Source: a virus. From it: a stretch of 22,921 bases of DNA. The notes beneath the pieces were generated by a model that saw nothing but the letters and a program-made list of their open reading frames with translations, searched no databases and was not told the origin of the DNA. Positions 7,958-20,838 of this stretch are shown here, in pieces. The stretch is from IMG/VR virus record IMGVR_UViG_3300006903_000126, positions 1-22,921 of that record. One strand, 5' to 3'. A program made the translations under genes and the position numbers. Positions within the stretch are counted from its first letter, which is position 1. Every line of letters begins with the position of its first letter.

Positions 7958-8332
7958 TTAGCTCTCCCGACGCAGAGAAGCCCGCAGCAGGACCTTGTAG
8001 GTGCTCTCCTCGCTGGTGTCGATCACCGACCAGGCGTTGCCCTCGATGACCACCTTGTCGCCGCGAGAGATGTCTGTGCCGACAGGCACGAAGAGGCGTC
8101 CATCATCGATCTGTTGCAGTGCCCCCATCTCGTCGGTCAGGTTGAGGTTCGGGGCGTTGCGGAACCAGCCCATCACGACCGCGTCGGGCGTGCTCGAGAA
8201 CGACTCTTCGTCGTCGCCGTAGTCACCCGCCACCGAGACCTTGCGGAAGATCTGGATCTCGGTCTGCATGCCGGTCAGGGCATATTCCCGCAGGCTCTCG
8301 ATCTCGGACTGGGAGACCAGCGGCCCGCTCAC
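7958..8332 (-). CDS. Head closure / head-tail adaptor (SPP1 gp16-like), 124 aa, GTG start
   Basis: Size, position and beta-barrel-like pattern (IQIFRK...GDYG....AVVMGW.....DISRGDKVVIEGNAWSVI) fit the family. GTGA overlap with the upstream stop at 8329..8332. Confidence 0.45.
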   Translation of the reverse strand: MSGPLVSQSEIESLREYALTGMQTEIQIFRKVSVAGDYGDDEESFSSTPDAVVMGWFRNAPNLNLTDEMGALQQIDDGRLFVPVGTDISRGDKVVIEGNAWSVIDTSEESTYKVLLRASLRRES

Positions 8333-9570
8333 CGGGATCCACCCCGGATCGTCATAAAGTTCATGCCGCCCAGGAGGGCTTGCGCCGCAGCGGGCAGCTC
8401 AATCCCTCGCTCGGCCCCGCTACGCGAGCCCACACGCCTCACACGGACCTCTTCGATCTCCAGTGACTCCAGACCCGTCAGGCCCTTTGCAGCGAGGCTG
8501 CGCTCGCCCAGGAAGGCATTCGCGGCGATCCCCGTTGCTTCCTGCACCTCCCATGGCACCTTGTAGACGAACGATGCGGAGAGAAGCGAGGCGGTCGAGA
8601 TCGGATCATCGAGCTTCACGATCCCGCTGTCTGGGTCGATGGTGTAGCCGCCCGAGACGACCACGTCGTCGAGCTTGAGCACGATGTCCTGGTCGGTGTC
8701 CCACCAGCCCACCGAGGCGATGTACTCCGTCGCCTCGTCGCCAGAGGTCGTATCGGTCGCCATGAGCGGCTCGTCCGTCACCGGGAACTGGTGGCCGTAG
8801 GAGTAGTCGATCCGCGCGACCGGGTTGAACAGCCCGAGCTGTGGGACGTTGCCCGCGCCCCAGATGCCGATCTGGCTCAGCGCGAAGTTGATGATCTCGA
8901 TGTAGCCGCCGTGCTTGTTGACGAAGACGTCTTCTGGCTGGAAATCGATGAACGTCGACTCCGTCGCCAGGACCCGCATCGCGGACATCGCCTTCAGCGG
9001 CGTGTGGAACGGGTAGACCCGTGCCGCCTGGTTATTCCGGCCCCACTCGTGCTCTTCGCCGATGATTTCCCCACCCTTGAACGAGTAGCGCTGTGGCGTC
9101 AGAGGCACATTGCAGAACGCGTCGACCGCAGCAGACGAGCGGAGCAGGTTCGCCCTGATCTCGTGGTCCGGAACCCCGTTGAGCCCGATGCCGAAGCCAG
9201 CCTTCTTGAAGCGCTGCGGGGTCATGTAGCCGGGGCTCCGACCCCCGACGATGACCGCTGGCCCCGTGACGGTCCCCGCCACGACAACATCGACGTACTC
9301 TGAGCCACTGACGTCGCCGCCAGCAATCTGCCCCGACCACTCCGCCGACCAGGTTCCGAGCTCCTCGTTCGAGAGCGTCTGCCAGAGGTAGCTGTAGGCG
9401 CCTATGCCGGGCTCGTCGACGATCGGTGGGATGACGAACGGCCCATACACGATGTCGCCGTCCGGGTTGCGGAGCGACATCGTGACGTTGTCCCCGTCGG
9501 CCGGGAGACCAGCTCCATTTCGATAGAGCGCCCTGAGTGTGATCTCTCCACCGCGCGCGACGGTTGCCAT
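8329..9570 (-). CDS. Hypothetical structural protein (413 aa). The central part resembles a gp6/gp15-type head-tail connector, flanked by extra N- and C-terminal domains.
   Basis: CGAGGG is 6 nt before ATG 9570. Residues ~115-230 (TPQRFKKAGFGIGLNGVPDHEIRANLLRSSAAVDAFCNVPL...VYPFHTPLKAMSAMRV...) follow the connector pattern (L..a.....D..i..li.aA...ie.....l). The N-terminal ~110 aa look like a beta-sandwich. Confidence 0.4.
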   Translation of the reverse strand: MATVARGGEITLRALYRNGAGLPADGDNVTMSLRNPDGDIVYGPFVIPPIVDEPGIGAYSYLWQTLSNEELGTWSAEWSGQIAGGDVSGSEYVDVVVAGTVTGPAVIVGGRSPGYMTPQRFKKAGFGIGLNGVPDHEIRANLLRSSAAVDAFCNVPLTPQRYSFKGGEIIGEEHEWGRNNQAARVYPFHTPLKAMSAMRVLATESTFIDFQPEDVFVNKHGGYIEIINFALSQIGIWGAGNVPQLGLFNPVARIDYSYGHQFPVTDEPLMATDTTSGDEATEYIASVGWWDTDQDIVLKLDDVVVSGGYTIDPDSGIVKLDDPISTASLLSASFVYKVPWEVQEATGIAANAFLGERSLAAKGLTGLESLEIEEVRVRRVGSRSGAERGIELPAAAQALLGGMNFMTIRGGSR

Positions 9571-9582
9571 CGGAAACCCTCG

Positions 9583-10065
9583 TTATTCGGGCAGCTTCTC
9601 CACGGCGGGCTGCTCGCCATTCTCGACTGGGGCTTCTGGCTCAACCGCCTTCAGCTCCGGGACCGACGGTGGCACCTGGATTGCCATCCGCATGATCTGT
9701 CCCCGATCCAGATCGCAGTTGAACTCCTCGTTGTCCGAGAGGCCATGCTGCTTGCAGATGTTGCGAATGAAAGCGGTCTTCTCGTTGCCAAGCATCGACA
9801 TGATCCGCGAGTAGTGCTGCTGGAGCGCCGCCAGCTCCTTCAGCTTCTCGCTGACGAAGACGATCTCGTCGTTGCGGGCCTTGATCTCGTTGACCTCGAG
9901 CACGGTCAGATCTGCCGCGTACTCCGGTTCAGGGAGTCGCTGGAGCACGGTACCCACCTGGCGCTCGACCATGCGTGGTTCCCTGGGAGCTCGCATCCGA
10001 CGTCGTTGGGATCGATTCGGGAGGTCGGTCATGGCATCCTCGTGCAGGTTGTTAGAGCTCGCCAC
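9583..10065 (-). CDS. Hypothetical protein (160 aa from GTG 10065, or 149 aa from ATG 10032)
   Basis: Coding-like frame with a helical central segment (NEIKARNDEIVFVSEKLKELAALQQHYSRIM). ATG 10032 has GAGGA 4 nt upstream, while GTG 10065 has no obvious SD. No family recognised. Confidence 0.55.
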   Translation of the reverse strand: MASSNNLHEDAMTDLPNRSQRRRMRAPREPRMVERQVGTVLQRLPEPEYAADLTVLEVNEIKARNDEIVFVSEKLKELAALQQHYSRIMSMLGNEKTAFIRNICKQHGLSDNEEFNCDLDRGQIMRMAIQVPPSVPELKAVEPEAPVENGEQPAVEKLPE

Positions 10066-10097
10066 AGTCTACGCAGTTTGGTGCAGAGCCAGAAGGC

Positions 10098-10985
10098 TCA
10101 TGGGTCCACCGTCACTGCCGCCATCCGCAGCTCGCAGGACGCATCCGAAGGCGGCGGATAGCCCCACGGGAAGCCGATCTTGTCATCGAACAGCACCGCC
10201 AGTGGCGTGGATGGCTCCGCCGCAGTCACCCTGAATACCTCGGTGCCGTCGATCAGGAAGGCGACAAAGCCGCTGCGCCGCTCGGTGCGGAACTCGTGGA
10301 AGGTAGTCCGGATGTCAGATGGGATCGGGAGGCCGTATTTGCTGCCCGCGCCCTGTCCAATGACGTGGGCCGCCAACTGCTGCCGCTCCAGCATTTCCGG
10401 CCAGTCAATCTCGGTCGAGGACCAGGTGGTCGTGTCGTACAGCCACCCCGCCTGCCAGCAGCCGGGATCTGGATTGAAGCTCAGCCAGGTGCGATAGGTG
10501 CCGTAGCCAAAAGTCGGGCCGTTTCCGCTCTGCGACGTGCCCAGCAGGACCGCGTCCCAGAGGCCGTCGCTGCGCTTTGCCGTGGTGAGATCTAGGTAGC
10601 CATCGTGGAAGCTGGCCCGCTGCGCGCCGTTGGCGAAGCGGTTGTAAGCCTCCATCAGGTCCGACGGGTGAGCGTCGGGGTAGGTCAGCACCTTGAAGGG
10701 CGCCAGGCTCCCATCGCTGAACACCTTGCGTAGCAGGGTTCCGTACTGAGGCGGTATCACCGGCAACCCGGTTGGACTCTGGCTCGCTGTCGGAGCAGGG
10801 GTCGGGGTTGGTGTCTGGGTCGGAGTGGGGATCGGGGTCGGGGTCGGCGTTGGGGCAACCGTCGGAGAAGCAGTCGCCGTTGGGTGCGGCCTCGGGGTCC
10901 GGATCGGGCGCTTCGCCTCTGTTGATCCGACCAGCACCATCGCGAATATCAGCGCAGCGGCGAACAGCCGAACACTACGCGGCAT
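10098..10985 (-). CDS. Secreted GH16-like (concanavalin-A-like glucanase fold) glycoside hydrolase with a Sec signal peptide and a Pro/Thr linker, 295 aa
   Basis: N-terminus MPRSVRLFAAALIFAMVLVGSTEA|KRP has the n-, h- and c-regions of a signal peptide (10914..10985). The PT-rich linker is 10770..10898. The catalytic-type motif E-I-D-W-P-E (10395..10412) fits the GH16 ExDxxE signature. Flanking GCWQAGWLYD and TFHEFRTERRSGFVAFLIDGTEVFR match the remembered WPAfWl and fH.Y..eW.p..i.fyvDG blocks. Confidence 0.6.
   Translation of the reverse strand: MPRSVRLFAAALIFAMVLVGSTEAKRPIRTPRPHPTATASPTVAPTPTPTPIPTPTQTPTPTPAPTASQSPTGLPVIPPQYGTLLRKVFSDGSLAPFKVLTYPDAHPSDLMEAYNRFANGAQRASFHDGYLDLTTAKRSDGLWDAVLLGTSQSGNGPTFGYGTYRTWLSFNPDPGCWQAGWLYDTTTWSSTEIDWPEMLERQQLAAHVIGQGAGSKYGLPIPSDIRTTFHEFRTERRSGFVAFLIDGTEVFRVTAAEPSTPLAVLFDDKIGFPWGYPPPSDASCELRMAAVTVDP
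10770..10898 (-). repeat. Pro/Thr-rich low-complexity linker (imperfect ACCCCG-type hexanucleotide repeats)
   Basis: Encodes TPRPHPTATASPTVAPTPTPTPIPTPTQTPTPTPAPTASQSPT. The plus strand shows reiterated ggggtcgg units. Confidence 0.8.
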
Positions 10986-10997
10986 GACGACACCCCC

Positions 10998-12206
10998 TTA
11001 TTCCCAGAGCGTTCTGCGCGAGAAACCTGCCAGCGGAATGATGCGGTTCGTCGTGAGTGCGGTCGGAATGATGTTCGACGGCAGCGGATAGGCCGACGCC
11101 TTCTCGAGCCCCAGCATGCGGCTGCCCCACAGGGCCGGTGAGCTGCGGAACACCGTCGCCGTCGTACCCGAGCAGACCAGCGCCAGCCACAGGCTCGGGT
11201 TACCGGGCCTCGAGGGAGGCAGCACGAACGAGGCGGTGCTGGCCTTGATCTCGACTGCGCAACTTCCCCACGCGGCTGACGTGAACGTGGCGTCGACGGT
11301 CGTATCGTTGCCGACATTCCACTCGGTCTCGAGCGCCTGCGCCGGAGTGGCGGCGGTCTGGTCCGCGGTCTCGGTGAAGCCAGTGCCGGGGGCCGTGGCT
11401 GTCGCCGCGGCGTGGCCGTGGGCACCGAACGTCGCGTTGTTGGCGGAGCCGAAGGCGGCCAGCGTTGCCAGCGCCGTACCGCTGCTCCCGGTACCGACAG
11501 CCTGCTGCACGATTCCGTCGTTGGTCGTCGTATCGACCCCTGAGAACTCCTCGAGCGCCCAGCAGGCGCCCGTCTGGGTGGTCGCGCCGAACGAGATGCT
11601 GATCGTGCCGGTGTAGTCGGCCGTCGGGACGCACGACCAGATGCTTACCCGGTTCAGGTTCGTGTTGTATTGCGTGGTGGAGCGGCTGGCCCACGTGCCA
11701 CCACCCGTGATCGAGCTGACCGCAGTCGCGCTCGATCCGTGCGAGTTCTCGACGCTCATCAGGTACAGGCGGCCCGCCTTGAGCGTCACGCTGGCGGTCG
11801 TGTAGCTCGTCGCGTCAGTCGAATCGTTGCCACTCGTGATGTTGGCGTGTGCCGTTTTCCACGTGCCGCTCGCCTGCACGACGTTGGCATTGGCCGACAC
11901 AATCCCACCAGTCGAGCGGATCAGGTCCATGCGTCCGGTGGTGTAATCGGTCATCTCATAGGCGCCAATGTCGAGCGAGTCAGTGCCGACCGTGGCTCCG
12001 TTGGTCCAGCCTGCCTTCGCCACCACGAACGCTTCGATCAGGTACATCGGGAAGAGCAGCGCGAGGTTCGCCGCAGGCCACGTTCCCGAGGCTGGGGCGG
12101 CAGCCCCTCCCGACGCCATCGTTCCCGCGAACTCGGGATGCCACGGTGTGATGATTGGCGGCGCGACCCGGTGCCTGGGCGGCGGTGTCCAGATCGGAAT
12201 GGTCAT
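10998..12206 (-). CDS. Hypothetical Thr/Ser/Ala-rich beta-type protein (402 aa). It is a paralog of 12203..12754 carrying a ~210-aa inserted domain.
   Basis: ATGA overlap with the upstream stop. It shares WPAANL (12063..12080), FP.Y, LDIGAYE and the C-terminal LALVCSGTTATV...LEKASAYPLPS...RT blocks with the 183-aa neighbour. Confidence 0.6.
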   Translation of the reverse strand: MTIPIWTPPPRHRVAPPIITPWHPEFAGTMASGGAAAPASGTWPAANLALLFPMYLIEAFVVAKAGWTNGATVGTDSLDIGAYEMTDYTTGRMDLIRSTGGIVSANANVVQASGTWKTAHANITSGNDSTDATSYTTASVTLKAGRLYLMSVENSHGSSATAVSSITGGGTWASRSTTQYNTNLNRVSIWSCVPTADYTGTISISFGATTQTGACWALEEFSGVDTTTNDGIVQQAVGTGSSGTALATLAAFGSANNATFGAHGHAAATATAPGTGFTETADQTAATPAQALETEWNVGNDTTVDATFTSAAWGSCAVEIKASTASFVLPPSRPGNPSLWLALVCSGTTATVFRSSPALWGSRMLGLEKASAYPLPSNIIPTALTTNRIIPLAGFSRRTLWE

Positions 12207-12754
12207 GGACCGAAGGTCCGGTAGCCCTGGACGCCCATCATTGGCAGGTACGCTCGCGTGTACTTGGCGAACGTGGCCGGGCTGGCCCCGGTCGACAGCG
12301 GCATCGTGATCCCGGCCTGCTCGAGCAGACCGAACGCCTGGAGGATGCCAGCCGCAGGCGCGACGCTTAGGACTGTTAGCGTCGTCACGGTGTCACACAC
12401 CATCGCCATGTAGTACGTGCCTCGCGCGAGCACGGTATCGGTGACGTCGAGAACCTGGAGATCCGTCGCCCCCGCTGCTGCGGTGGTTCCCTTGGACACC
12501 AGCCGGGTTCCGTCCTCAGCGTAGATCCCCAGATCGATGTTGCCCGAGGCGACGCCGATCGCTGCGAACAGCTTGGTCACGGTCACCGGCTCGGGCACGT
12601 AGAACGGCACGAAGATCACGAGGTTGGCGGCAGGCCACGCCGCTGCCGCCCATCCCGTCATGGAGGCGCGGTAGGCGGCGACCCCGAGAGATTGCTCGGT
12701 TGTCGGCGTGATGATGACTTCGCCGGGTCTGGCGAGCTCCGGGGCGAACAGCAT
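12203..12754 (-). CDS. Hypothetical beta-type protein (183 aa), the compact paralog of 10998..12206
   Basis: TAATG junction with the upstream gene (12752..12756). WPAANL lies at 12620..12637. No family recognised. Confidence 0.6.
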   Translation of the reverse strand: MLFAPELARPGEVIITPTTEQSLGVAAYRASMTGWAAAAWPAANLVIFVPFYVPEPVTVTKLFAAIGVASGNIDLGIYAEDGTRLVSKGTTAAAGATDLQVLDVTDTVLARGTYYMAMVCDTVTTLTVLSVAPAAGILQAFGLLEQAGITMPLSTGASPATFAKYTRAYLPMMGVQGYRTFGP

Positions 12755-14064
12755 TAGTAGATCTCGAGCAGATGGAGCTTCGCGTCGCCCGTCGCCGTGT
12801 AGGCAGCCGATGTGATGCCCGTGATTGCATTCGTCACCGGCAGGAAGATCGAGGCTCCCGGATCGAGCACGTAGTGCGTGGCATAGACCGCGGTGCCGCC
12901 GCTGATGTCGAGCGCCACCCCGACGGTCTGCTTATTCGTAATCAGCACGCCCTTCCGCTGCGATCTGGCAGAGATGACCGTCGTCGACGTGTTGCTGATC
13001 GCCACCTGGCTGGCGGCATTGGTCCCAGCTCCGACCTCGTAGCCGACCTGCGCGCCTGAGCGCAGATACCAGGACTGAACGGCATCGCCGTCGGCGCTGA
13101 CCGCGGACGGTGCAGCGGCGCTCGCGTAGCCACCGATCAGCAGCGGGTTGCTGCCGGTGCCGACCGCATCGTGATCCGCGAGCCCCTGCACGCCTGCGCG
13201 GACGTACCAGGGTGCCTGCGATCCAGAGACCTTGACGGTGGCGGTGCCGGAGGCGTAGACCGCGTTGACCCGGTAGCGGACCTGGCGGATACCCTGGCAC
13301 GGCACCATGTACATGTCGTTCACGGCCGGGACGAACGACCCGCTGATGAACGATGGCGGCAGGCCCATCTTGATGACTCCGGACGCCGTCACCCAGTTGG
13401 TGTCGTCCCCGGTCACCTCAAAGATCATGGAGCCCGGCGTCGTACCGATGGTCGTGACGTGGAAGATCATCGAGGCCGCGCCATCGGTGACCACCGTCAC
13501 GGCGTTGGCGGTGTTCGTAGCGGCCACTCCGGCCGGGTTCGTCTTGCGATCCCAGCCCGGCCCGATGCCTGCCGCTGGAATCCCGGTATCGACGTTCGGC
13601 GCTGCATCGAGCGCGGTGATCGACCGGGAGCGATCCCAGGTCGTGCCGTTGAACACCGAAGACCACGACTGGGTATTCAATCCCGCCGTGGCGGTGAACG
13701 CATCGGTCGGCGTGTTGGCGGTGGCCGCGCCGGTACCGTCGTAGCCGGATGCGATGAACACGCCGAGTCGACCCTTGGAGTCGAAGTGGGCGTCGACCCG
13801 ATCCCCTGCCGACACGCCGGTCGGATTGACGGCGGTGACCTTGCCACCGACCTTCATCGGGTTCCCGCTGTCGACGGAGTCATGCGGCGTGGCTCCGCCG
13901 ACAGCGAGTGCTCCGACCGCGCTGACGCCTGTCTCGAGGACACCGCCAGCCGCGACTCCGCCGCCCGAGGCCGGGAATACGATCCCGCTGACCTCGATCA
14001 GGTCAGTACCGCCTCCAGTGTCGTAGTCGAGCTGGCGCTGTTCCCCAAACTGGGCATCAGCCAT
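12754..14064 (-). CDS. Hypothetical fibre- or decoration-like protein (436 aa), paralog of 14071..15543
   Basis: Starts MAD... and shares the DTGG(G)T N-terminal motif with its neighbour. It carries two copies of the ~45-aa module repeated in that neighbour (13753..13887 and 13033..13176). Gly/Ala/Thr/Ser/Val-rich. Confidence 0.6.
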   Translation of the reverse strand: MADAQFGEQRQLDYDTGGGTDLIEVSGIVFPASGGGVAAGGVLETGVSAVGALAVGGATPHDSVDSGNPMKVGGKVTAVNPTGVSAGDRVDAHFDSKGRLGVFIASGYDGTGAATANTPTDAFTATAGLNTQSWSSVFNGTTWDRSRSITALDAAPNVDTGIPAAGIGPGWDRKTNPAGVAATNTANAVTVVTDGAASMIFHVTTIGTTPGSMIFEVTGDDTNWVTASGVIKMGLPPSFISGSFVPAVNDMYMVPCQGIRQVRYRVNAVYASGTATVKVSGSQAPWYVRAGVQGLADHDAVGTGSNPLLIGGYASAAAPSAVSADGDAVQSWYLRSGAQVGYEVGAGTNAASQVAISNTSTTVISARSQRKGVLITNKQTVGVALDISGGTAVYATHYVLDPGASIFLPVTNAITGITSAAYTATGDAKLHLLEIY

Positions 14065-14070
14065 TGGTCA

Positions 14071-15543
14071 TCAGACCTCGTCCCAGTACCCGGTGCTGTA
14101 GACGTCGGCCGCGACCGATGCGTCCTTGTTGGTGATCCTCACCCCGAAGCCCGTCGTCGCGTCGGAGCTGGCCCGGGTGATGAAGGTGTCATCTGGCGCA
14201 CGCCACTGGAGGAGCTGCCCGGCCAGGGCGAAGGCCACGACCCGAGCCGTGAATGAGCCGGTCAGGATCGTACCGATTTCGATCTTGATCGGGACGGTCG
14301 AAGTGACGTCCGCACCCCAGAGCTGACCCGTCTTGCCGGAGGTGACGTAGTGCGTCAGGGTGACGTTCGCCCCAGCGCCCAGGGCGGCTGAAGTCTGCGT
14401 GCTGAAGAACGCCGAGGTCGGCTTGAGCGTGTAGAACGCCGCACCGTCGGTCAAGCGGACCGGGAGCGGGTTCGTCGCACCTGGCGCCGAGCCGACGATC
14501 TGGTTGACGTTGATCGAGCTGTTCGCTGCCGGAGTGACCGCGACGGACCCCTGGTCCGAGGCAATGACCACCGGGAGGCTGTTCGCCGAGGTCTTCGACC
14601 CGATCGTGATGAGCGTTCCTGCCGAGGCCAGGTTCACCACGGGCGAACCATTCCGCAGCATCCACATGGCGACCGCGTCGTTGTTGGCCGACACGTCTGA
14701 AGGTGCCGCCGCATTGGCGAGGCCCATGCTCATCGTGCCGGTCGGCGTCGACGTCGCTGCGGCGTCTCCGACGTACTGCGTGCCGCTGCCGAACGACGTG
14801 ATCTGGTTGCCCGAGCCATCCACGATGGCGACGTTCAGCGCATCGTTCGCCGCCAGGTCACGGACTGTCGCCAGGGTCGTGCCATCCGAGATGCGGACAT
14901 GCTGGGCCGTGGCGATGGTCTGCCCGATGTTCGTGAGCAGCGTGCCGTTGGCGGCGATGTTCACGACCGGCGACCCGTTGCGAAGCATCCACATCGCAAC
15001 CGCGTCGTTGTTGGCAGAGACGTCGGTCGGTGCCGCCGCATTCGCCAGGCCGACGGCCATCAGGCCAGTCGGAGTGGCTGTCGCCGCCGCATCCCCAACG
15101 TACTGCGCGGCCAGCGCAAGCGCGCTCTGGTCCGAAGCGATGACCACGGGCAAGCTCGAAGCCATGGCCTTCTGGCCGATGGTGATGAGGGTGCCCGCCG
15201 AAGCAAGGTTCACGACAGGTGAACCGTTCCGCAGCATCCACATCGCGACCGCGTCGTTGTTGGCGCTGACATCGGACGGCGCTGCCGCGTTGGCAAGGCC
15301 CGAGATCATCAGCGTGTTCGGAGTCGCCGTCGCCGCAGCATCACCGACGTACTGGCCCAGCAGGTCAGCCGTCAGGGAGCCTGAGTTGTCCGTCACCGGC
15401 ACGGCGACGCCCGAGGCATCGACCGAGAGGCGACCCGCGGCCGAAACCGCGGCCTCGTTCGTCCCGCCCGTATCAATGAGCTTCCCCCGGACGAACTCGG
15501 TAGTAAGTGTCTTGACCGCGAGGCCAGTTGAGTTGTCAGCCAT
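14071..15543 (-). CDS. Hypothetical fibre- or decoration-like protein with three tandem 76-aa-type modules (490 aa)
   Basis: GAAGGAG is 7 nt before ATG 15543. The internal repeats begin QYVGDAAAT... No family recognised. Confidence 0.65.
   Translation of the reverse strand: MADNSTGLAVKTLTTEFVRGKLIDTGGTNEAAVSAAGRLSVDASGVAVPVTDNSGSLTADLLGQYVGDAAATATPNTLMISGLANAAAPSDVSANNDAVAMWMLRNGSPVVNLASAGTLITIGQKAMASSLPVVIASDQSALALAAQYVGDAAATATPTGLMAVGLANAAAPTDVSANNDAVAMWMLRNGSPVVNIAANGTLLTNIGQTIATAQHVRISDGTTLATVRDLAANDALNVAIVDGSGNQITSFGSGTQYVGDAAATSTPTGTMSMGLANAAAPSDVSANNDAVAMWMLRNGSPVVNLASAGTLITIGSKTSANSLPVVIASDQGSVAVTPAANSSINVNQIVGSAPGATNPLPVRLTDGAAFYTLKPTSAFFSTQTSAALGAGANVTLTHYVTSGKTGQLWGADVTSTVPIKIEIGTILTGSFTARVVAFALAGQLLQWRAPDDTFITRASSDATTGFGVRITNKDASVAADVYSTGYWDEV
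14551..15354 (-). repeat. Three tandem protein-level repeats: R1 15127..15354, R2 core 14932..15105 plus a divergent 51-aa spacer, R3 14551..14778
   Basis: R1 and R3 are 66/76 identical at the protein level. All three copies contain an identical NNDAVAMWMLRNGSPVVN. The nucleotide copies are diverged at synonymous sites (see findings). Confidence 0.9.
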
Positions 15544-15814
15544 CGACAGGCTCCTTCGGTGCCTTGACCATCAGTTTCAGGTTGGTGTCGTTCTCGGCGA
15601 TCTTGGCCGTGAGAGCTGCCTCATTGGCGAGAATCTTCCGAGCCTCTTCATCCAGTTCCTCGTTCGCGAGCTCGGCTCGCGCGAGGTTGACCTGCTTCTG
15701 ACCGTCAATCTGGGATAGGCGAGCCTGCCCCTGCTTTATCGTCTGTCGATGCTCGAGCGTTGCGAGCTCGAGGCGACGTCGTTCGATCGTGTAGTTGGGA
15801 CCCGCGTCAGCCAT
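15536..15814 (-). CDS. Small coiled-coil-like protein (92 aa)
   Basis: ATG 15814 with GTGAGGT upstream. Heptad-like charged sequence (RRRLELATLEHRQTIKQGQARLSQIDGQKQVNLARAELANEELDEEARKILANEAALTAKIAEN). 8-nt overlap with the next gene. Confidence 0.55.
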   Translation of the reverse strand: MADAGPNYTIERRRLELATLEHRQTIKQGQARLSQIDGQKQVNLARAELANEELDEEARKILANEAALTAKIAENDTNLKLMVKAPKEPVDG

Positions 15815-15821
15815 CTGAACC

Positions 15822-16181
15822 TCACTCAGCGAAGATGGTGCCTTCGTAGTCGCCGGACACGGGACCCGTGTTCTCGACCCGGAGAGCGATGACTGAACCC
15901 GCCGCGATGACCTCTGGGTTCGGCATGACCAAGTAGCCCTCGTTCACGCGGCTGAAACGAGCCTTGATCCCCTCCAGGGGAGCGTTGTCCACTTCGACCC
16001 ACATCTCGCCGTCAGTGGTTCCATGCACCTTGAAGCCACGCAGCTTCCGGGTGCCAGCCACCGTGCTAACGATGGTCTGCACACCACTCGGCGCCAGACC
16101 AGCGATGGCTCCCCGGACGTTCTGCGCGTTCGGAGCCCCACCGCTGCTGCCACCAGCGACAGGCTGGACGATGGCGGTCAT
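15822..16181 (-). CDS. Hypothetical 119-aa beta-rich protein directly after the capsid gene, a candidate head decoration protein
   Basis: ATG 16181 has GAGGA 5 nt upstream. The track's longer form (to 16358) would overlap the capsid gene by 100 nt and encodes an Arg/Ser/Pro-rich out-of-frame-looking leader. Function is inferred from position only. Confidence 0.55.
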   Translation of the reverse strand: MTAIVQPVAGGSSGGAPNAQNVRGAIAGLAPSGVQTIVSTVAGTRKLRGFKVHGTTDGEMWVEVDNAPLEGIKARFSRVNEGYLVMPNPEVIAAGSVIALRVENTGPVSGDYEGTIFAE

Positions 16182-16203
16182 GGCGATCCTCGTAGAGATG
16201 CGG

Positions 16204-16235
16204 GGGGCCGGGGGCCACCAAGGACCCTCGGCCCC
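16204..16235 (-). terminator. GC-rich stem-loop after the major capsid gene. It could be an attenuator, leaky terminator or mRNA stabiliser. There is no U-tract.
   Basis: Minus-sense fold: GGGGCCG-A-GGGTC-[CTTGGT]-GGCCC-C-CGGCCCC, giving 12 bp. One pair is G.U in the minus-sense RNA but a C.A mismatch in the plus sense, which favours function in the coding-sense transcript. It starts 22 nt after the MCP stop. Confidence 0.4.
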
Positions 16236-16257
16236 TCGTTCAGTGCCAGATCTGCGA

Positions 16258-17559
16258 TCAGGTCTGGAAGACGCGGACCTTGTTGCTGAAGGGCAGAGCC
16301 TTCTCAGCCAAGCCCCACATGCCGAAGACGATGAACATGCGGGTGAGCTGTCCGCCAACGCCGACGGGGATCTCGATGACCGTTGGGGCTGCGGAGCCCA
16401 GGTACGGCAGCGAGATGGTGGCCTCGTCGAGGACGTAGATGTCGCCCACGGTCTCCCCGTTGGCGCCTCCGGTCCCCGTGTAGGTCCCGATCGACGGCCC
16501 AGGCACCGGGATCAGCGGCAGTGCCCCAAACGGGCTGTTGAATGCCTGAGTCCGAACGCCGACCGCGATGTCGACGAGCTCAGACGTCCAACGCACGTTG
16601 GCTTCCTGCTGCTTGTCCAGGAGGTGCTTGTTGAAGGCCGACAGGTAGATCGCCGAGGCAGATCCGCCATCGTCCATGATCGGCACGCATGCCAAGTCGA
16701 GCTTGTCGATGAACTGGTCAGGGGTCCCTGCGAAGGGATCCATGTTCACGACGCGGCTGCCGTTGGTGTCCGTGTTGAGAAGCTGGCGAAGCCCGGTGAA
16801 GCCGTCCGGATCGAACTCGCCCGCCTCGGTGGAGGCGGTTCCGCCCGACTCGGTGTCGTTGGCGTTGCCACCGAAGATGGTCTTCTGCATCTTCGCGGCG
16901 ATCGCCACGAGCGCCGACCGCATCTCGAGCTGCTCGGGGTTGAAACCCGAGCCGGACTGGAGCGCGGCGAACTGCTGCTTCAGGGTGACTCCGCGCCGGG
17001 TGCCGATGATCGCGACGTTCGTGGTCTTCCGGCCGTACGTCCCACGATCGTCAACGACGGTTCCCAGCTCGGAGATGAACTCAGCGCCACCCGGGCTGGT
17101 CTGCTGGGTGAAGGTGTGGACCAGGCCGTTCGCGGGCTCCTTGGTGAAGCGATCCCACGCTGGGAAGGCTCGCACGAAGAGCTCGTACATGAACGGCTCG
17201 AGGTCCTGCCGCACCAGGGCAGAGCCGGAGGTCGTGTCGAGCGCCTTCTTCAGATCCGGGCTGGCTCCGACTGCGTCGATGAGCTGCTGCCCACCGGCTG
17301 CCAGCCAGACCTCGAGAGGAACGCCGGTCCCCCGGACGCGAAGCTGCTTGCTGAGCGCGTGGTAGACGTGCGGGGTCGCGAGCTTCCGCAGCTCCATCTG
17401 CATCTCGAAGATGTCATCTCCGGAGAGCAGCTTGCGTGCGGGTGTCTCGTCTCCCGGCCCTTCCACGATCGGCGTGGAGTGGGGAGTCGCGTTGAGGGCT
17501 TCGAGCTTCTGTCGAAACTCGTCGACGAGCGCGAGCCCTTCTGCGAGATCAGGGTGCAT
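16258..17559 (-). CDS. Major capsid protein, HK97 fold (433 aa from ATG 17559)
   Basis: Directly downstream of the prohead protease. AAGGAG is 6 nt before ATG 17559, whereas the track start at 17595 lacks an SD and lies deeper in the protease gene. Size and the pattern LDTTSGSALVRQDLEPFMYELFVRAFPAWDRFTKEPANGLVHTFTQQTS resemble HK97-type capsid proteins. Confidence 0.8.
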   Translation of the reverse strand: MHPDLAEGLALVDEFRQKLEALNATPHSTPIVEGPGDETPARKLLSGDDIFEMQMELRKLATPHVYHALSKQLRVRGTGVPLEVWLAAGGQQLIDAVGASPDLKKALDTTSGSALVRQDLEPFMYELFVRAFPAWDRFTKEPANGLVHTFTQQTSPGGAEFISELGTVVDDRGTYGRKTTNVAIIGTRRGVTLKQQFAALQSGSGFNPEQLEMRSALVAIAAKMQKTIFGGNANDTESGGTASTEAGEFDPDGFTGLRQLLNTDTNGSRVVNMDPFAGTPDQFIDKLDLACVPIMDDGGSASAIYLSAFNKHLLDKQQEANVRWTSELVDIAVGVRTQAFNSPFGALPLIPVPGPSIGTYTGTGGANGETVGDIYVLDEATISLPYLGSAAPTVIEIPVGVGGQLTRMFIVFGMWGLAEKALPFSNKVRVFQT

Positions 17560-19102
17560 CGGAAGCTCCTTGGTTGTGCTTGGCGATGTAGGCAAGGAGC
17601 TCGCCGCTGTACGGACCGCCCTTCAGGCGCTCCGCGAGGCCAGCGGCCTCACGTCGCACCACGGACTTCCGTCCAACCGGCATGCTCATCAGCCTGTTGA
17701 CGATCTCGACCGCGGTCGCGACATTCTTGTCGGCCTCGGCGAGCTTTGTGGTGAGAGCCTCGTTCTTGGCTGTCAGCTCAGCGGTCTTCGCTCTCTCGGC
17801 GATGAGTGTCGCTAGGGTCTCCCCCAGCACCCTCACGGTCTCGGTGAGACCGTTCAGCACTCCCTCGGCCTGGAGAGCTCGGATCTGAGCCTCGGCCTCC
17901 TTTTCGGCTTCCCCGTCAACCCCTGCGTCGCCTTCAGGGTCGCTCGCGGGTGGAGCTTCCTGATCGTCGGTGGGGTCAGCTTCCTCGCTCGCCGAATCCG
18001 GGGGGTCCGGGGCGGGCTCGGAGTTCAGGATCTCGGAGGCCATGTCCTTCGCAGTTCGACCCTCGAACTCGCTAGCTGCGACGCCATGCTCAAGCGCATA
18101 GTCGATCGAAGCCTGGACGGCCTCCTCCATTGCATCGAGATCGGTCCGACTGGCCTTGCCAGCCTCGACCTGAATCTGGTAGTGGGCGATGATCTGGTCC
18201 GGGCCATCGGCCTGGAAGACCCCGTCCTCGTCGTCGTCGGGCTCAGGCGGCTCGCCCGGCTCGGGAACCTCTGCCACCACGGTGGGTGGCTCTTCGGTCT
18301 CGTCGTCGACCTCTGTGTTGGCGAGGTCGAGATCCTCCTCGGGATCCACGGACGCCTCCTTCTTGCTGAACGACAGCCACTTCTGCCGCATCCGGTTGAA
18401 CTGGTCCTCGCTGGCGCCACGCACGGCGCCCTTCTGGATGAGGCCCTTGGTGGCGTTCTCGACCCAGCTCAGCGGGTTCGCGGGGATCCCGACCATGCTC
18501 GCTTCGAGAAGGATGACTTCGTTGATGATGAGCGGCGCCCAGTAGTCGCCCTCGTAGTCGGGGTCCTCCTCGAAGTCGGTGATTAGCGCCCCGATCGAGA
18601 TTCCAACCGTGACGCCGTTCTCCATCGAGGCGAAGGTGGCCTCGGCACGCGGGTTCGAGGAGTCCTCGAGGACGGTGATGTCCATCAAGGTGATCGGGTC
18701 GTTGGGGGCGCTCTTGTCGATGTAGCCCTGGGCCTTGGCCTCCGCGGCGGACATGGTCCGCGTGCGGGCCTTCTCGGCCACGCCGAAGACATCCTCGGGC
18801 AGCTTGTAGTTGTGGTTCAGGAAGATCGTCTTGCCGACGATCTGCTTCGTCATCGATCGAACGCAGGCGTCCGTCATCCGGTCGCCATGCAGGTCCTTGA
18901 CCGACGAGGAGGCAATGCCTCTGACCCGCTTGCGGCCATCCGAAGAGGCGGACGACTTGACGACCTTCAGCTCCCCCGTGAAGATCTTGAAGTCAGGTCG
19001 CTCGTGCTCCCCTTCGTCGCCGAGCAGCACGGTTCCCACCATTGGCTCGAGGGACTCGAGCAACTCCTGGGTCGACTGCGGCTTGGGCTTCGTGAGCGTC
19101 AT
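17549..19102 (-). CDS. Prohead (capsid maturation) protease of HK97/S78 type fused to an acidic, coiled-coil scaffold-like C-terminal half (517 aa)
   Basis: GAGGTG is 7 nt before ATG 19102. The N-terminal ~215 aa carry remembered S78 blocks: GIASSSVKDLHGDRM (candidate His72), FLNHN, GISIGA (candidate Ser169) and LLEASMVGIPANP. The C-terminal half has Asp/Glu/Pro-rich linkers followed by a helical region (IRALQAEGV...LTAKNEALTTKLAEADKNV). Confidence 0.8.
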   Translation of the reverse strand: MTLTKPKPQSTQELLESLEPMVGTVLLGDEGEHERPDFKIFTGELKVVKSSASSDGRKRVRGIASSSVKDLHGDRMTDACVRSMTKQIVGKTIFLNHNYKLPEDVFGVAEKARTRTMSAAEAKAQGYIDKSAPNDPITLMDITVLEDSSNPRAEATFASMENGVTVGISIGALITDFEEDPDYEGDYWAPLIINEVILLEASMVGIPANPLSWVENATKGLIQKGAVRGASEDQFNRMRQKWLSFSKKEASVDPEEDLDLANTEVDDETEEPPTVVAEVPEPGEPPEPDDDEDGVFQADGPDQIIAHYQIQVEAGKASRTDLDAMEEAVQASIDYALEHGVAASEFEGRTAKDMASEILNSEPAPDPPDSASEEADPTDDQEAPPASDPEGDAGVDGEAEKEAEAQIRALQAEGVLNGLTETVRVLGETLATLIAERAKTAELTAKNEALTTKLAEADKNVATAVEIVNRLMSMPVGRKSVVRREAAGLAERLKGGPYSGELLAYIAKHNQGASDAP

Positions 19103-20285
19103 GCGCTAGCACCTCGATGTACTCGTTGAACCTTGCCGCTGCCTCGTCCCAGACGAACGAGCGGGTGACGTGCTCCAGACCTGCCTGCTCGGCATCCCGA
19201 CGCCAGCGCCGCGATGCGTAGGCACGTTCGATGGCTTCGGAGAAGGCGCCGATGTCGGCGAGCCAATGGTCCTGTCCGAAGGGGACCGTGATCTCTCGCC
19301 CGGGTTCGATCAGCTCGCCACCAGGACCCACGACCTCGGGGATCGCAGATACGTTCTGGGCGATGACTGGAACGGCGCAGGCCAACGATTCGGCCAGCGT
19401 GAGCCCGAAGCCCTCACCTCGGCTTGTCGACACGAACAAGTCGAAGGCGTTGTAGATGGCGTTGAGATCCTGCTGGCTGTACCCCTGGTTGGTGATGAAC
19501 CGGCTCGGCACGCGGAACCGATCCAGCAGGTCGAGCTCGCGGCTGAAGAGCGCCGGGAGGTTGACACCCGATCGCTCGTCCTTGGGCTTGCAGTGGAAGT
19601 AGGTGACGACGTCTGAATGGCGACGCATCACCGGCAGCACGGCTTTCCAGGTGGATGCGAAGTCCTTGCGGCCGGTGTTGCGATCGACCCTGCCGATCAA
19701 GAACGAGTCCGGATCGAAACCGAAGGCCCGCTTGCAGTCCCTCTTGGTCCGAAGCACATCGCCGCGGCTGATGGTGATCGGCCGCTCCCCGGAGACCGGC
19801 CAGAAGAGATCCGTGTCGACGCCGTGGTAGACGAGCTTCGCCTCCGGCATGGCCTCCAGGCCGAACTTGCTCATCGCGACTCGGTTCGTGACCTGACCCA
19901 ACGGGTCGTACATCTTTGGGTTGTTGTACCCATCGATCGGGATGTAGGCCAAGACCGGAAACCGCTTGATGATGAGCCGCTCGGGATCGAAGCGGTTGTT
20001 CAGCAACCAGGCGTAGAGCACCTGCGGGTCGTTGAGCGTGACGATCACGTCAGGCATGACGTTGGCGGCCAGCTCGATGAACCGGCTCATCCCGTAGGTG
20101 TCCCCTGCATCATGGATGGTGGGGACGTACATCTGGACCTTGGTCGGGTAGGGGTCGCCTTTGTAGTTGGTCGCTAGGAGATGGACCTCGTGTCCGTACT
20201 GCTCGACCAGGCGATCTCCCAGGGCATGAGCAACTCGAGCGAAGCCGGTGGCGCTGCCACCGTCACCGATCCATAGGACGCGCAT
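18993..20285 (-). CDS. GT-B fold glycosyltransferase (family 1 / GT4-like), 430 aa
   Basis: GGAGGA lies upstream of ATG 20285. The N-terminus MRVLWIGDGGSATGFARVAHALGDRL is a typical GT-B start. The C-terminal domain has STSRGEGFGLTLAESLACAVPVIA, i.e. the E-x7-E motif. The last ~37 codons overlap the protease gene. Confidence 0.75.
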   Translation of the reverse strand: MRVLWIGDGGSATGFARVAHALGDRLVEQYGHEVHLLATNYKGDPYPTKVQMYVPTIHDAGDTYGMSRFIELAANVMPDVIVTLNDPQVLYAWLLNNRFDPERLIIKRFPVLAYIPIDGYNNPKMYDPLGQVTNRVAMSKFGLEAMPEAKLVYHGVDTDLFWPVSGERPITISRGDVLRTKRDCKRAFGFDPDSFLIGRVDRNTGRKDFASTWKAVLPVMRRHSDVVTYFHCKPKDERSGVNLPALFSRELDLLDRFRVPSRFITNQGYSQQDLNAIYNAFDLFVSTSRGEGFGLTLAESLACAVPVIAQNVSAIPEVVGPGGELIEPGREITVPFGQDHWLADIGAFSEAIERAYASRRWRRDAEQAGLEHVTRSFVWDEAAARFNEYIEVLAHDAHEAQAAVDPGVARVPRANGGNRAARRRRGARAT

Positions 20286-20400
20286 CGTTCCTCCACGCCA
20301 GGCAGCGAAACGCTGCGGGCTGATGGTGAAAGGCGAACAAGCGTGCTACGCTTGTGCGGGCGGACCCTGGGTCAGGGCTGAATGGCAGCTCGGGGGTCCG

Positions 20401-20466
20401 CCTCTCCTATTCCGGGGATGGCACGGCTAGCGTTTGACCGCTAGCCGTCCATTCGGCACGGAGAGG
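20401..20466. promoter_or_regulatory. Long imperfect palindrome or extended hairpin (~24 bp in total), a candidate operator or RNA processing/regulatory structure
   Basis: The inner repeat is a perfect 10-bp inverted repeat, acggctagcg (20423..20432) / cgctagccgt (20439..20448), with a 6-nt loop. It is flanked by ggatgg/ccattc (20416..20421 / 20449..20454). The outer arms are cctctcc/ggagagg (20401..20407 / 20460..20466). Confidence 0.5.
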
Positions 20467-20494
20467 AGATTCGTGAGGCGCACGATAACAGATG

Positions 20495-20514
20495 CCCTGT
20501 CGACTTGAACAGGG
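20495..20514 (-). terminator. Short hairpin immediately after the stop of the 103-aa gene, a weak intrinsic-terminator candidate
   Basis: ccctgt (20495..20500) / acaggg (20509..20514) with an 8-nt loop. In the minus sense it is followed by CAUCUGUUAUCG, which is only moderately U-rich. Confidence 0.3.
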
Positions 20515-20515
20515 T

Positions 20516-20827: not shown

Positions 20828-20838
20828 GAGCTTCTCCT

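Follow-up and report, generated by a model that had tools for sequence, protein, structure and literature searches.

The head fibre gp8.5 of phage phi29 and the fibritin (wac) of T4 are dispensable, and their genes adjoin head or neck genes. The fibres possess coiled-coil or helical shaft elements, with fibritin attached at the neck. Lactococcal neck passage structures (NPS) are accessory collar fibres with carbohydrate-binding modules at their tips. They occur in 73 of 113 phages of the 936 group, and TP901-1 can do without them (PMC6669499). The multi-protein turrets of HFTV1 both bind and degrade glycans and have been proposed to mediate a reversible first binding (10.1101/2024.12.09.627619).

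An add-on block of ~7 kb in an uncultured, high-GC soil phage was compared with these systems. The block (~9229-16181) is interpreted here, with a probability of about one half, as an accessory, horizontally exchangeable cassette that adds host-surface-binding fibres to the virion, with docking proposed at the neck. It would share with the collar-whisker NPS of 936 and P335 siphophages, such as TP901-1, the character of an accessory adhesion device of the head-tail junction that is present or absent among close relatives. However, an NPS is one protein of 500-900 aa comprising a BppU-like N-terminal beta-sandwich, a trimeric coiled coil and a BppA-type binding module, whereas the cassette consists of eight genes plus an adaptor domain and its neck location is deduced from genes, not observed. 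No sequence relation between NPS and the cassette was found. The HFTV1 turrets (base gp30 and head gp31) resemble the cassette in combining a small jelly-roll subunit with carbohydrate functions, and there is a weak fold match to one cassette protein. Nevertheless, the turrets stand on capsid hexamers and include a deacetylase built into the virion, in contrast to the signal-peptide-bearing GH16 enzyme here, and the two systems show no sequence homology. The phi29 and T4 fibres differ in being single-gene products with known folds, and Pfam, PHROG and PDB searches revealed no similarity between them and the cassette.

Organization of the gene block

The window is the whole stretch of DNA analysed, 22,921 nucleotides of IMG/VR record IMGVR_UViG_3300006903_000126. 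A sequence-only reading had placed seven co-oriented ORFs of 119, 92, 490, 436, 183, 402 and 295 aa at 10098-16181, in the interval that separates the major capsid gene from the connector genes. The ORFs, their coordinates on the minus strand and their slot were confirmed (Table 1), and independent gene callers predicted the same genes (14 metagenomic contigs). The gene upstream of the block encodes the major head protein (phrog_752, 8.9e-8) and those downstream code for connector and tail proteins (Hc1, Neck1/tail completion, major tail protein). On the minus strand the junctions were found precisely as quoted, with ATGGCTGA at 15536-15543, where g92 overlaps g490 by 8 nt, TAATG at 12752-12756 and ATGA at 12203-12206; the remaining intergenic gaps are 7, 6 and 12 nt. 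Neither a sigma-70-like promoter nor a minus-strand terminator was found within the block, in agreement with a single co-transcribed late unit devoid of its own promoters. The G+C content and GC3 of the block equal those of the surrounding operon. The proposed richness in Ala, Gly, Thr, Ser and Val also held, as these residues constitute 51-57% of five block proteins compared to 41-43% of the capsid, adaptor and tail-tube proteins.

Table 1. Positions of the block elements and flanking features in the window, in order from the capsid gene.
Feature	Positions	Strand	Remarks
G+C-rich hairpin	16204..16235	-	directly after capsid gene stop
g119, beta-rich protein, 119 aa	15822..16181	-	first of conserved triplet; GAGGA ribosome-binding site supports start
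g92, charged, coiled-coil-like protein, 92 aa	15536..15814	-	second of triplet; conserved in every cassette locus
g490, repeat fibre-like protein	14071..15543	-	conserved N-terminal ~45 aa, repeats, C-terminal jelly roll
g490 repeats, three of ~85-110 aa	~14509-15354	-	starts at residues 64, 147, 256
g490 C-terminal 8-stranded jelly roll	14074-14412	-	residues 378-489; AlphaFold2
g436, second fibre-like protein	12754..14064	-	two repeats (~residues 60-105, 297-348), middle beta domain, small C-terminal beta domain
g183, small protein	12203..12754	-	counterpart of the outer, non-inserted part of g402; BLASTP and alignment to g402
g402, all-beta two-domain protein	10998..12206	-	AlphaFold2 pLDDT 91.6, pTM 0.90
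g402 insert, ~210-aa beta-sandwich	11247-11879	-	residues ~110-320; receptor-binding or lectin type
g295, GH16-type glycoside hydrolase	10098..10985	-	signal peptide 1-24, Pro/Thr linker ~30-75, GH16 domain
EIDWPE catalytic motif of g295, intact	10395-10412	-	residues 192-197; GH16
g149, helical-looking, Arg-rich N-terminus	9583..10032	-	149 aa, or 129 aa per gene finders; ATG at 10032 with GAGGA ribosome-binding site
Ig/MG2-like N-terminal domain (~114 aa) of g413	9229..9570	-	last cassette element; g413 is the 413-aa putative head-tail adaptor
Putative head-tail adaptor core	8329..9228	-	weak collinear phrog_442 'head-tail adaptor' matches; upstream of Hc1, Neck1

The block is an indel that includes an adaptor domain

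Synteny with the close IMG/VR relatives L018 and L019 reveals directly that the block is an indel. The capsid proteins of the relatives are 80% identical to that of the window, and the portal, glycosyltransferase, protease, connector, tail-tube and tape measure genes are shared. The capsid gene in L018 and L019 is followed immediately by that for a 301-aa adaptor; all seven ORFs, g149 and adaptor residues 1-114 are missing. DNA collinearity with L018 stops at 16256 and resumes at 9141. The hairpin, with a stem GGGGCCG...CGGCCCC in the folded 76-nt spacer after the capsid gene (z-score only -1.3), has a counterpart at the equivalent place in L018 and delimits the insertion on its upstream side. 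The block behaves as one unit that is larger than the span proposed originally: instead of seven genes it contains nine elements, namely eight genes and the domain added to the adaptor.

The g149 protein looks helical from its sequence. In L005, L006, L007, L013, L015 and L020, a homologous gene immediately precedes that of the adaptor, whereas L018 and L019 have none; g149 is the conserved penultimate cassette element. The 301-aa adaptor of L018 and L019 begins at g413 residue 115 and is missing the Ig-like domain, which in L006, L007, L013, L015 and L020 is the only conserved part of g413; the adaptor core and capsid families of these loci differ. The adaptor core belongs to the backbone and not to the cassette. 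Its identity as an adaptor is putative, based on weak PHROG matches (E 1e-4 to 0.045) and gene position. Weak evidence suggests the Ig-like fold, comprising MG2 matches in three of five members (best 1.1e-4, below the cut-off) and a match to the YfhM MG domain (0.015). The putative adaptor is the only virion protein that changes with the block, gaining the Ig-like domain, which points to the neck and not to the capsid-surface attachment envisaged in the sequence-only reading. The domain may accompany the cassette merely through adjacency, and could be an independent adhesin.

Glycosyltransferases had been thought tied to the block. Such a link to glycosylation found no support: the block-less relative retains them (GT4, E 7.6e-202), and none was found nearby in five other cassette-bearing loci. 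The window proteins encoded after the tape measure gene are 169, 274, 917 and 601 aa in length, of which the 274-aa and 601-aa proteins match tail-fibre PHROGs. Thus, an ordinary tail-tip and fibre module is located downstream of the tape measure gene and the block is extra.

Gene order is conserved behind unrelated capsid genes

Seven loci span both boundaries of the cassette (the window, L005, L006, L007, L013, L015 and L020), and their order is directly seen to be the same: capsid gene, g119-like, g92-like, g490-like and g436-like genes, variable genes, g149-like gene and Ig-adaptor gene. The g119-like, g92-like and g149-like products measure ~120, ~90 and ~130 aa, respectively, and the variable genes encode proteins of lectin-like character. 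Three unrelated capsid families precede the cassette, the window's own type, phrog_3922 and Mu gpT/Phage_capsid_4, and triplet identity is 40-60% among phages that show no detectable relationship between their capsid proteins. The variable slot contains genes for LamG or ConA-type proteins in L005, L007 and L001. In more distant homologues the repeat-protein gene is positioned differently, after the portal gene in MW202554.1 and before it in L014.

Apart from GH16, none of the proteins could be assigned to a family previously, which is borne out as the other six lack a Pfam, PHROG or NCBIfam family. The PDB contained no relatives of these families, 50,697 GenBank phage records yielded no match except for one repeat motif, and pattern scans of GTDB disclosed no relatives in bacterial genomes. 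The cassette members are all metagenome-derived. Judged by these searches, the cassette is made up of uncharacterized protein families. The suggestion that the products resemble fibre or adhesin parts is supported by repeats, knob or jelly-roll domains and domains common to tail proteins.

Homologues of g119 in L005, L006 and L007 have E-values of 1e-26 to 1e-44, and the family comprises 78 clusters at 90% identity and 227 representatives at 50% identity. At least 24 of 30 g119-family contigs >5 kb are also among the g490 matches, when contigs of the two sets are paired by length. The g119 domain recurs as a C-terminal 'knob' of the longer proteins P0326, P0333, P0405, P0410 and P0456; P0333 joins an apparent coiled coil to the knob and P0456 joins it to g436-type repeats. 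Thus, as these fusions display directly, cassette parts also occur within single fibre-like proteins. The g92 protein (homologues across cassette loci at E 1e-19 to 1e-37) is 33% Lys, Arg, Asp and Glu and looks like a coiled coil, as suggested by the sequence pattern and a weak CCDC-167 match.

Fibre-like proteins and the case for the capsid surface

The 490/436 and 183/402 proteins had been viewed as two paralogous pairs. Shared domains were verified in both, whereas full-length paralogy was not: g490 and g436 have only a repeat unit of ~50-90 aa in common (E 1e-4). Genes for g436 homologues come after a g490-like gene in L005, L006, L007, L013, L016 and L020, and the C-terminal domain of g436 stands alone as a 126-aa protein in L010 (9.2e-21). 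Almost all of the 268 g490 homologues recovered are without a Pfam domain. AlphaFold2 was confident for g490 only at residues 378-489 (pLDDT 90-97, remainder <50); the terminal jelly roll is a direct result, and the repeats are unmodelled as a monomer. The C-terminal domain is the most conserved region of g490, which is unusual for a receptor-binding tip, and the fibre may have either polarity. There is no profile similarity between this domain and g119.

Foldseek returned only generic matches for the g490 jelly roll, including Ena fibres, CBM16, CBM4 and phage tail-fibre domains. The best TM-score was with 8qpg_TD, a 114-residue chain of the HFTV1 turret entry (TM 0.60, E 1e-4). This match accords with the original proposal that the products are capsid-surface fibres or decoration, comparable to phi29 gp8.5; seated on hexamers, pentamers or threefold sites, they would also recall the HFTV1 turrets. 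Moreover, in every locus the triplet follows the capsid gene immediately or with one to three small genes in between, the g436-, g183- and g402-type genes of L010 are near that for a phrog_2647 'head decoration' protein, and HFTV1 demonstrates that head turrets which bind and degrade glycans exist (10.1101/2024.12.09.627619). Nevertheless, the conservation of the triplet behind unrelated capsids is hard to square with specific capsid contact, the generic jelly-roll matches extend to tail-fibre domains, and between cassette-bearing and cassette-less relatives the capsid is unchanged while the adaptor gains a domain. Location on the capsid surface is considered unlikely, and the neck is preferred as the docking site.

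g402 and the case for tail side fibres

The g183 and g402 proteins match in BLASTP at 1e-5 over the WPAANL motif and are collinear once the insert is removed: g402 is a g183-type jelly roll that carries an inserted domain of ~210 aa, in a fold that is among the direct results. In L010, a 176-aa g183 homologue adjoins two g402-like genes. PDB matches to g402 were weak. However, Foldseek against BFVD located a domain of ~210-230 residues in many actinophage 'minor tail proteins' and in a CenC-like carbohydrate-binding protein (E 1e-8 to 1e-5). The insert domain also is found in a 655-aa protein of L017 encoded at the tail-tip position after the tape measure gene. One part of the block, the g402 insert, is thus of the same kind as receptor-binding domains of the tail-tip or minor-tail type, which tells in part against the original proposal. 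The genes for the minor tail and tail-tip proteins of actinobacteriophages follow the tape measure gene, whereas g402 is encoded in the interval from capsid to adaptor gene, with its domain inserted into a second jelly roll and not at a fibre end.

The shared domain raises the question of side fibres along the tail or at the baseplate that are encoded in an atypical order. The cassette slot also harbors genes for very large proteins of 1073, 748 and 846 aa (L006, L007 and MW202554.1), and MW202554.1 encodes a polygalacturonase-like protein typical of tailspikes. Nevertheless, the position between capsid and adaptor genes is constant in all seven complete loci, which include siphovirus-type loci with a separate tail-tip module, the tail proteins of the window and L018 differ only by ordinary divergence, and none of the six non-GH16 proteins gave a tail-fibre PHROG match. 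Tail side fibres are deemed quite improbable compared with fibres at the neck.

g295 and the case for non-virion cargo

The GH16-like domain recognized previously in g295 was confirmed (PF00722, 1.2e-7, with 31.8 bits where the cut-off is 22). Like GH16 beta-1,3-glucanases of the laminarinase type, g295 exceeds the Pfam gathering score and has the motif E-I-D-x-x-E. It aligned over ~155 residues to the beta-1,3-glucanases 9vmv, 9voq and 3atg, with EIDWPE opposite EIDIME, although identity to solved GH16 enzymes is low. What sets g295 apart from these enzymes is its place in the structural operon of a phage, together with its signal peptide and Pro/Thr linker. Among the block proteins, g295 alone has a strongly hydrophobic N-terminus (Kyte-Doolittle 2.58, residues 5-19). 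The motif and the signal peptide are both direct observations. The Sec-type signal peptide denotes exported cargo and not a protein built into a particle assembled in the cytoplasm, and g295 is removed from the fibre system in which it had been included.

The entire block might be non-virion cargo with a role inside the infected cell or at its surface, such as surface remodelling, exclusion or support of lysis. Relatives manage without the block, and besides the exported GH16 protein here, equivalent slots elsewhere encode secreted proteins, a metalloprotease in L005 and a ConA-like protein in L001. However, only g295 has an export signal; the other proteins are large and beta-rich with fibre repeats, knobs and domains common to tail proteins. 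The base composition matching the operon, the absence of an own promoter or terminator, and the lack of bacterial relatives in the GTDB scans also oppose this explanation, and the adaptor change that goes with the block favors a part in virion structure. The possibility that the whole block is cargo is regarded as very remote, and virion fibres at the neck are favored.

Proposed role in adsorption

Extra sugar-binding fibres at the head-tail junction are most likely since the close relative lacks both the block and the extra domain of the neck protein together. The cassette would be transcribed by read-through from the capsid gene within the late operon. The g490 and g436 proteins could form oligomeric fibre shafts via their ~90-aa repeats, with small jelly-roll domains at the ends, and g119, as a knob-type beta-sandwich, and the coiled-coil g92 would be separate subunits or assembly partners of the fibre. 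Lectin-like or receptor-binding-type beta-sandwich heads may be supplied by g183 and g402. A ring of Ig-like domains on the adaptor N-terminus would provide a docking platform at the head-tail junction, and g149 may assist in docking. The g295 enzyme would be exported from the infected cell via its signal peptide and cut a beta-glucan-type surface polymer; that it is a receptor-destroying or release factor is a guess. The fibres would bind glycans of the cell surface reversibly and thereby may enhance adsorption before the ordinary tail-tip proteins commit the phage to infection.

Organization and composition of the seven-gene block

The window (G+C content 62-71%) carries on its minus strand the late structural operon of a siphovirus-type phage, the gene order of which was read from the window and the full 69-kb contig and is compiled in the table. 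Seven ORFs, designated g119, g92, g490, g436, g183, g402 and g295 by the length of their products in amino acids, are located between the genes for the capsid and for a putative head-tail adaptor, rather than among the tail-tip genes that follow the tape measure gene. As tail-tip and fiber proteins are encoded after the tape measure gene, a conventional tail-tip and fiber set is already in its usual place. The tape measure protein itself possesses several poly-glycine runs, the longest comprising 10 consecutive Gly residues near the C-terminus, as well as long Ala/Gly/Pro-rich stretches.

Features of the window and of further loci (L numbers), with the operon genes in order
Contig	Feature	Position	Strand	Size	Remarks
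Window	Large terminase, portal				Start of operon
Window	Hexapeptide acyltransferase, GT2-like protein, 109-aa and 103-aa proteins				After portal
Window	GT4 glycosyltransferase, then protease-scaffold protein				Before major capsid gene
Window	Glycosylation-type block (acyltransferase through GT4)	18993-22734	-		Portal-protease interval
Window	Major capsid protein	16258-17559			phrog_752, 8.9e-8
Window	Hairpin	16204-16235	-		G+C-rich, right after capsid stop
L018	Hairpin	8700-8745			G+C-rich, right after capsid stop
Window	Seven ORFs, g119 to g295	10098-16181	-		After major capsid gene
Window	g295	10098-10985			Sec-type signal peptide
Window	g149, small helical-looking protein	9583-10032			After the seven ORFs
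Window	Putative head-tail adaptor			413 aa	After g149; weak phrog_442 matches
Window	Ig-like domain of adaptor	9229-9570			N-terminal
Window	Hc1 (head closure), Neck1/tail completion, 150-aa protein, major tail protein, two chaperone-sized ORFs				After adaptor
Window	Tape measure protein	343-5241	-	1632 aa
Window	169-, 274-, 917- and 601-aa proteins				After tape measure gene; two of four match tail-fiber PHROGs
Window	Holin-like gene				After tail-tip proteins
Window	Antisense ORF	13171-14256	+	361 aa	No supporting homology
Window	Antisense ORF	14504-15718	+	404 aa	No supporting homology
Window	Antisense ORF	15964-17700	+	578 aa	No supporting homology
L001	Exported protein (MW202554.1)	13513-14304			Sec-type signal peptide; ConA-like lectin/glucanase
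L005	Exported protein	12590-13159		189 aa	Sec-type signal peptide; metalloprotease-like zinc-binding motif
L005	Lectin-like protein	14552-15229			C-terminal GGGYYP or GGGYYG
L007	Lectin-like protein	11861-12649			C-terminal GGGYYP or GGGYYG
L016	Lectin-like protein	17019-17777			C-terminal GGGYYP or GGGYYG
L008	Region beyond tail-tip genes	20883-22567			Holin-like gene; no recognizable endolysin among small ORFs listed
L010	Sub-module (133-kb contig)	8747-12363			g436 C-terminal domain, g183-like and g402-like proteins
L013	Giant ORF	1-3312		5869 aa	Runs off locus; upstream of head genes
L016	Giant ORF	1-3201		6091 aa	Runs off locus; upstream of head genes

The coordinates, lengths and junctions of the seven ORFs in the sequence-only reading were all correct when ORFs and junctions were checked, and the same seven genes were called by gene callers on 14 independent contigs. 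The view that the genes form one unit devoid of promoters of its own also held, as neither a promoter-like site nor a minus-strand terminator was found inside the block. The G+C content of the block (0.63-0.68) is as in the flanks, and its GC3 values (0.71-0.85) are like that of the capsid gene. Thus, the possibility that the genes are morons was rejected, both because promoters and minus-strand terminators are absent from the block and because its composition matches that of the operon. If the genes were instead cargo derived from the host, relatives might be anticipated in cellular genomes; pattern scans of GTDB genomes revealed none for g119 or g402. Long plus-strand ORFs that overlap the region were dismissed as antisense artefacts of high G+C content, as homology supports the minus-strand frames only.

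The start of g149, the gene that follows g295, was considered separately. Gene finders give a product of 129 aa and the longest ORF (9583-10065, minus strand) one of 160 aa from GTG. The ATG at 10032 is preceded by a GAGGA ribosome-binding site and the N-termini of homologues fit a 149-aa protein, which is probably the product that is made from this ATG.

The richness in A, G, T, S and V remarked on in the initial description is evident in five of the proteins, in which these residues constitute 51-57% compared to 41-43% in the capsid, adaptor and tail-tube proteins. The same description treated g490 with g436, and g183 with g402, as paralogous pairs. Each pair does have domains in common, but the proteins are not full-length paralogs. 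Instead, a repeat unit of ~50-90 aa is present in three copies in g490 (starting at residues 64, 147 and 256) and in two copies in g436, and g402 consists of the g183 jelly roll with an inserted domain of ~210 aa.

Related genomes with and without the block

When IMG/VR was scanned with the capsid protein, two contigs, L018 and L019, were identified that encode a capsid protein 80% identical to that of the window and whose collinearity with the window extends from the portal gene through the tape measure gene. The capsid gene in both contigs is followed by a hairpin and then directly by the gene for a 301-aa adaptor, the start of which corresponds to residue 115 of the 413-aa protein. DNA similarity to L018 ends at position 16256 of the window and restarts at 9141, such that 7.1 kb of the window correspond to 164 bp in L018. 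The unit gained or lost thus comprises g119, g92, g490, g436, g183, g402 and g295, the next gene g149, and an N-terminal domain of ~114 aa in the adaptor. The synteny comparison proposed at the outset therefore identifies an indel: the block is absent from L018 and L019 and every flanking gene is kept. This is the distribution of an accessory element, as in the neck passage structure or collar-whisker fibers, as the core virion genes of L018 and L019 are intact. The adaptor domain whose presence follows that of the block is Ig-like; its similarity to Ig-like domains of the macroglobulin type is weak but was seen repeatedly.

A link between the block and the glycosyltransferases of the same operon had been proposed. 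This link was not supported, as the relative L018 which is without the cassette keeps them: the GT2-like, 109-aa, 103-aa and GT4 genes are all present in L018 and L019 (GT4, E 7.6e-202), and the glycosyltransferases were rejected as a part of the cassette. The target of the glycosylation-type block is probably a backbone structural protein. The 109-aa protein of this block has a Lys/Ala-rich N-terminus and the GT4 gene also is kept in L005. Glycosyltransferases encoded in structural operons are already known in mycobacteriophages, for which capsid glycosylation was inferred (PMC11256854).

A hairpin after the capsid stop is found both in the window and in L018. It did not qualify as a significant structure, with a z-score of only -1.3 and a fold energy that is not exceptional, and may adjust expression between the capsid gene and those downstream.

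Conservation of the cassette across phage lineages

The contexts of g490 and g119 homologs were compared in the loci that cover both cassette ends, namely the window, L005, L006, L007, L013, L015 and L020. All seven follow one plan: the capsid gene is followed by a g119-like gene (product ~120 aa), then by genes for a g92-like protein of coiled-coil appearance (85-134 aa), a g490-like protein (520-650 aa) and a g436-like protein, by a variable set, and by a g149-like gene (~120-135 aa) just before an adaptor that starts with an Ig-like domain. The cassette of L016 begins in the same way and the locus ends before the adaptor. Three capsid families accompany the cassette, these being the type in the window, phrog_3922, and Mu gpT/Phage_capsid_4 with a cement protein, and phmmer detected no link between the three. 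Despite the differing capsids, the g119 proteins are 41-61% identical and the g92 proteins 48-65% identical. As the Ig-like domain is the only part of the adaptor that is conserved across these capsid lineages, the cassette appears to move as a unit that brings this domain with it. A set of 227 representatives at 50% identity was obtained for the 119-aa domain, and the 490-aa and 402-aa families number at least 268 and at least 162 clusters, respectively.

The variable slot is occupied by LamG or ConA-type proteins, very large proteins (748-1073 aa) and secreted proteins. Lectin-like proteins in this slot in L005, L007 and L016 share a C-terminal GGGYYP or GGGYYG motif, and two have Laminin_G_3 matches. 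In L010, the C-terminal domain of g436 occurs as a separate protein (126 aa) together with a g183-like protein (176 aa) and two tandem g402-like proteins (393 and 394 aa). They lie near proteins that match phrog_2647 ('head decoration') and tail-fiber PHROGs, and so this part of the cassette can occur without the g119, g92 and g490 triplet. The giant ORFs on the cassette-bearing contigs of L013 and L016 have NUDIX matches together with ADP-ribosyltransferase or kinase-like matches.

Domains and folds of the cassette proteins

The inability of the sequence-only reading to name families for these proteins proved well founded: Pfam, PHROGs and NCBIfam yielded nothing for six of the seven, and PDB sequence searches with single proteins and family profiles revealed no relatives. 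The block had no blastn match among GenBank phages, and tblastn against the same phages with g119, g436, g183, g402 and the capsid protein also was without a match, such that no cultured member was found. The sole match for g490 among GenBank phages was to the metagenomic record MW202554.1, in a repeat motif annotated as 'glycoprotein repeat domain'. Pattern scans with g119 found no relatives in IMG/VR or among GTDB genomes; in JGI metagenomes, they were limited to two short contigs from soil.

The AlphaFold2 model of g402, built with a 35-sequence alignment, is confident, all-beta and two-domain (pLDDT 91.6, pTM 0.90). In BFVD, a domain of ~210-230 residues in this protein has counterparts in numerous actinophage 'minor tail proteins' and in a CenC-like carbohydrate-binding protein. 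The conserved domain also resides within a 655-aa tail-tip protein encoded after a tape measure gene in L017; matches to PDB structures were weak. Thus, by way of the BFVD minor tail proteins and L017, g402 alone has a receptor-binding-type domain in common with tail fiber or receptor-binding proteins. Confidence in the AlphaFold2 monomer of g490 is limited to a C-terminal eight-stranded jelly roll, and does not extend to the N-terminus or the repeats. At the level of a generic fold, this jelly roll resembles carbohydrate-binding modules, Ena fiber subunits, tail-fiber domains and one chain of the HFTV1 turret.

An exhaustive profile search with g119 retrieved the 227 representatives, and many of these are longer proteins that carry the domain at their C-terminus. 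The domain is combined with a region of coiled-coil appearance in P0333, joined to g436-type repeats in P0456 (E 6e-19), and placed after CarboxypepD_reg- or CBM-like domains in P0405 and P0410. Through these fusions, g119, g92 and the repeat proteins are linked to a single fiber-like structure. The possibility that g119 is a stand-alone version of the C-terminal jelly roll of g490 was not supported (hhalign probability 0.2%).

A predicted GH16 enzyme and other exported proteins

The GH16-like domain recognized previously in g295 was substantiated by a PF00722 match of 31.8 bits (E 1.2e-7), which exceeds the gathering threshold of 22. The protein also matches beta-1,3-glucanases in the PDB at 1e-5, and the catalytic motif E-x-D-x(-x)-E is present as EIDWPE at residues 192-197 opposite EIDIME of 9vmv. 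The assignment of g295 as a predicted GH16 member is sound. An export signal was found in g295 only among the block proteins; g295 is thus predicted to be exported and hence cargo-like in function, yet it is translationally packed into the unit. As a guess, it might act as a receptor-destroying or release enzyme. Sec-type signal peptides recur in the cassettes of L005 and L001, and a position reserved for exported enzymes may be a feature of the cassette. As a predicted exported GH16 enzyme encoded within a structural operon, g295 also offers a separate way into the question of how phages remodel the host surface.

Proposed role and docking site of the cassette

An accessory adhesin-fiber cassette is the most plausible reading of the block, and it is quite likely that most of its products are virion-associated fiber or adhesin parts. 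The complete explanation, in which these parts would dock at the neck, is assigned a probability of about 0.5. An alternative is that the products form fibers on the capsid surface, for which the HFTV1 turrets are the closest analog, although not a sequence relative. None of the characterized head decoration or fiber families (phi29 gp8.5, HFTV1 turret, Hoc/Soc and cement proteins) was matched in Pfam, PHROG or NCBIfam searches. Foldseek also produced no decoration-specific match, returning generic jelly rolls (E about 1e-4, best TM 0.6) that included tail-fiber domains and carbohydrate-binding modules. Docking at the neck is favored over the capsid surface because, among the backbone virion proteins, the putative adaptor alone differs between genomes with and without the block, because the Ig-like domain tracks the cassette across unrelated capsids, and because conservation of the cassette proteins far exceeds that of the capsids that accompany them. 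Capsid-surface fibers are considered unlikely. We infer neck docking with an adaptor whose assignment is weak, and the shared travel of the Ig-like domain and the cassette could be explained by adjacency alone.

The closest functional analog of neck-docked fibers is the neck passage structure of lactococcal phages, which is not a sequence relative (PMC6669499). That structure combines a BppU-like N-terminal domain, a trimeric coiled coil and a BppA-type binding module in one protein, whereas the cassette has no such profile matches and a multi-gene architecture; the resemblance is functional only. More tentatively, and with doubt outweighing confidence, the cassette may be a self-contained plug-and-play adhesion module that encodes a multi-protein fiber along with its own docking domain, the Ig-like adaptor extension, and that is therefore mobile among tailed phages with unrelated capsids to which it gives neck fibers. 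The exported glycanase that it brings along would condition the surface of the host. It would then be a previously undescribed and widespread class of appendage with at least six families that lack a Pfam, PHROG or NCBIfam profile.

Overall, the feature is real and of an ordinary kind, accessory phage adhesion gear, with a novel composition and architecture, and is widespread in metagenomes. Accessory adhesion devices set the speed with which phages adsorb and the cells that they target. To our knowledge, almost all such devices have been described from a few cultured model phages. The cassette adds six protein families without a Pfam, PHROG or NCBIfam profile that have hundreds of metagenomic members, and provides a natural pair of otherwise collinear genomes with and without the block, along with a specific structural prediction, that of neck fibers borne by a collar of Ig-like domains. 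If true, this would show how a complete appendage and its docking site move between unrelated phage lineages, and would furnish new modular parts for phage retargeting.
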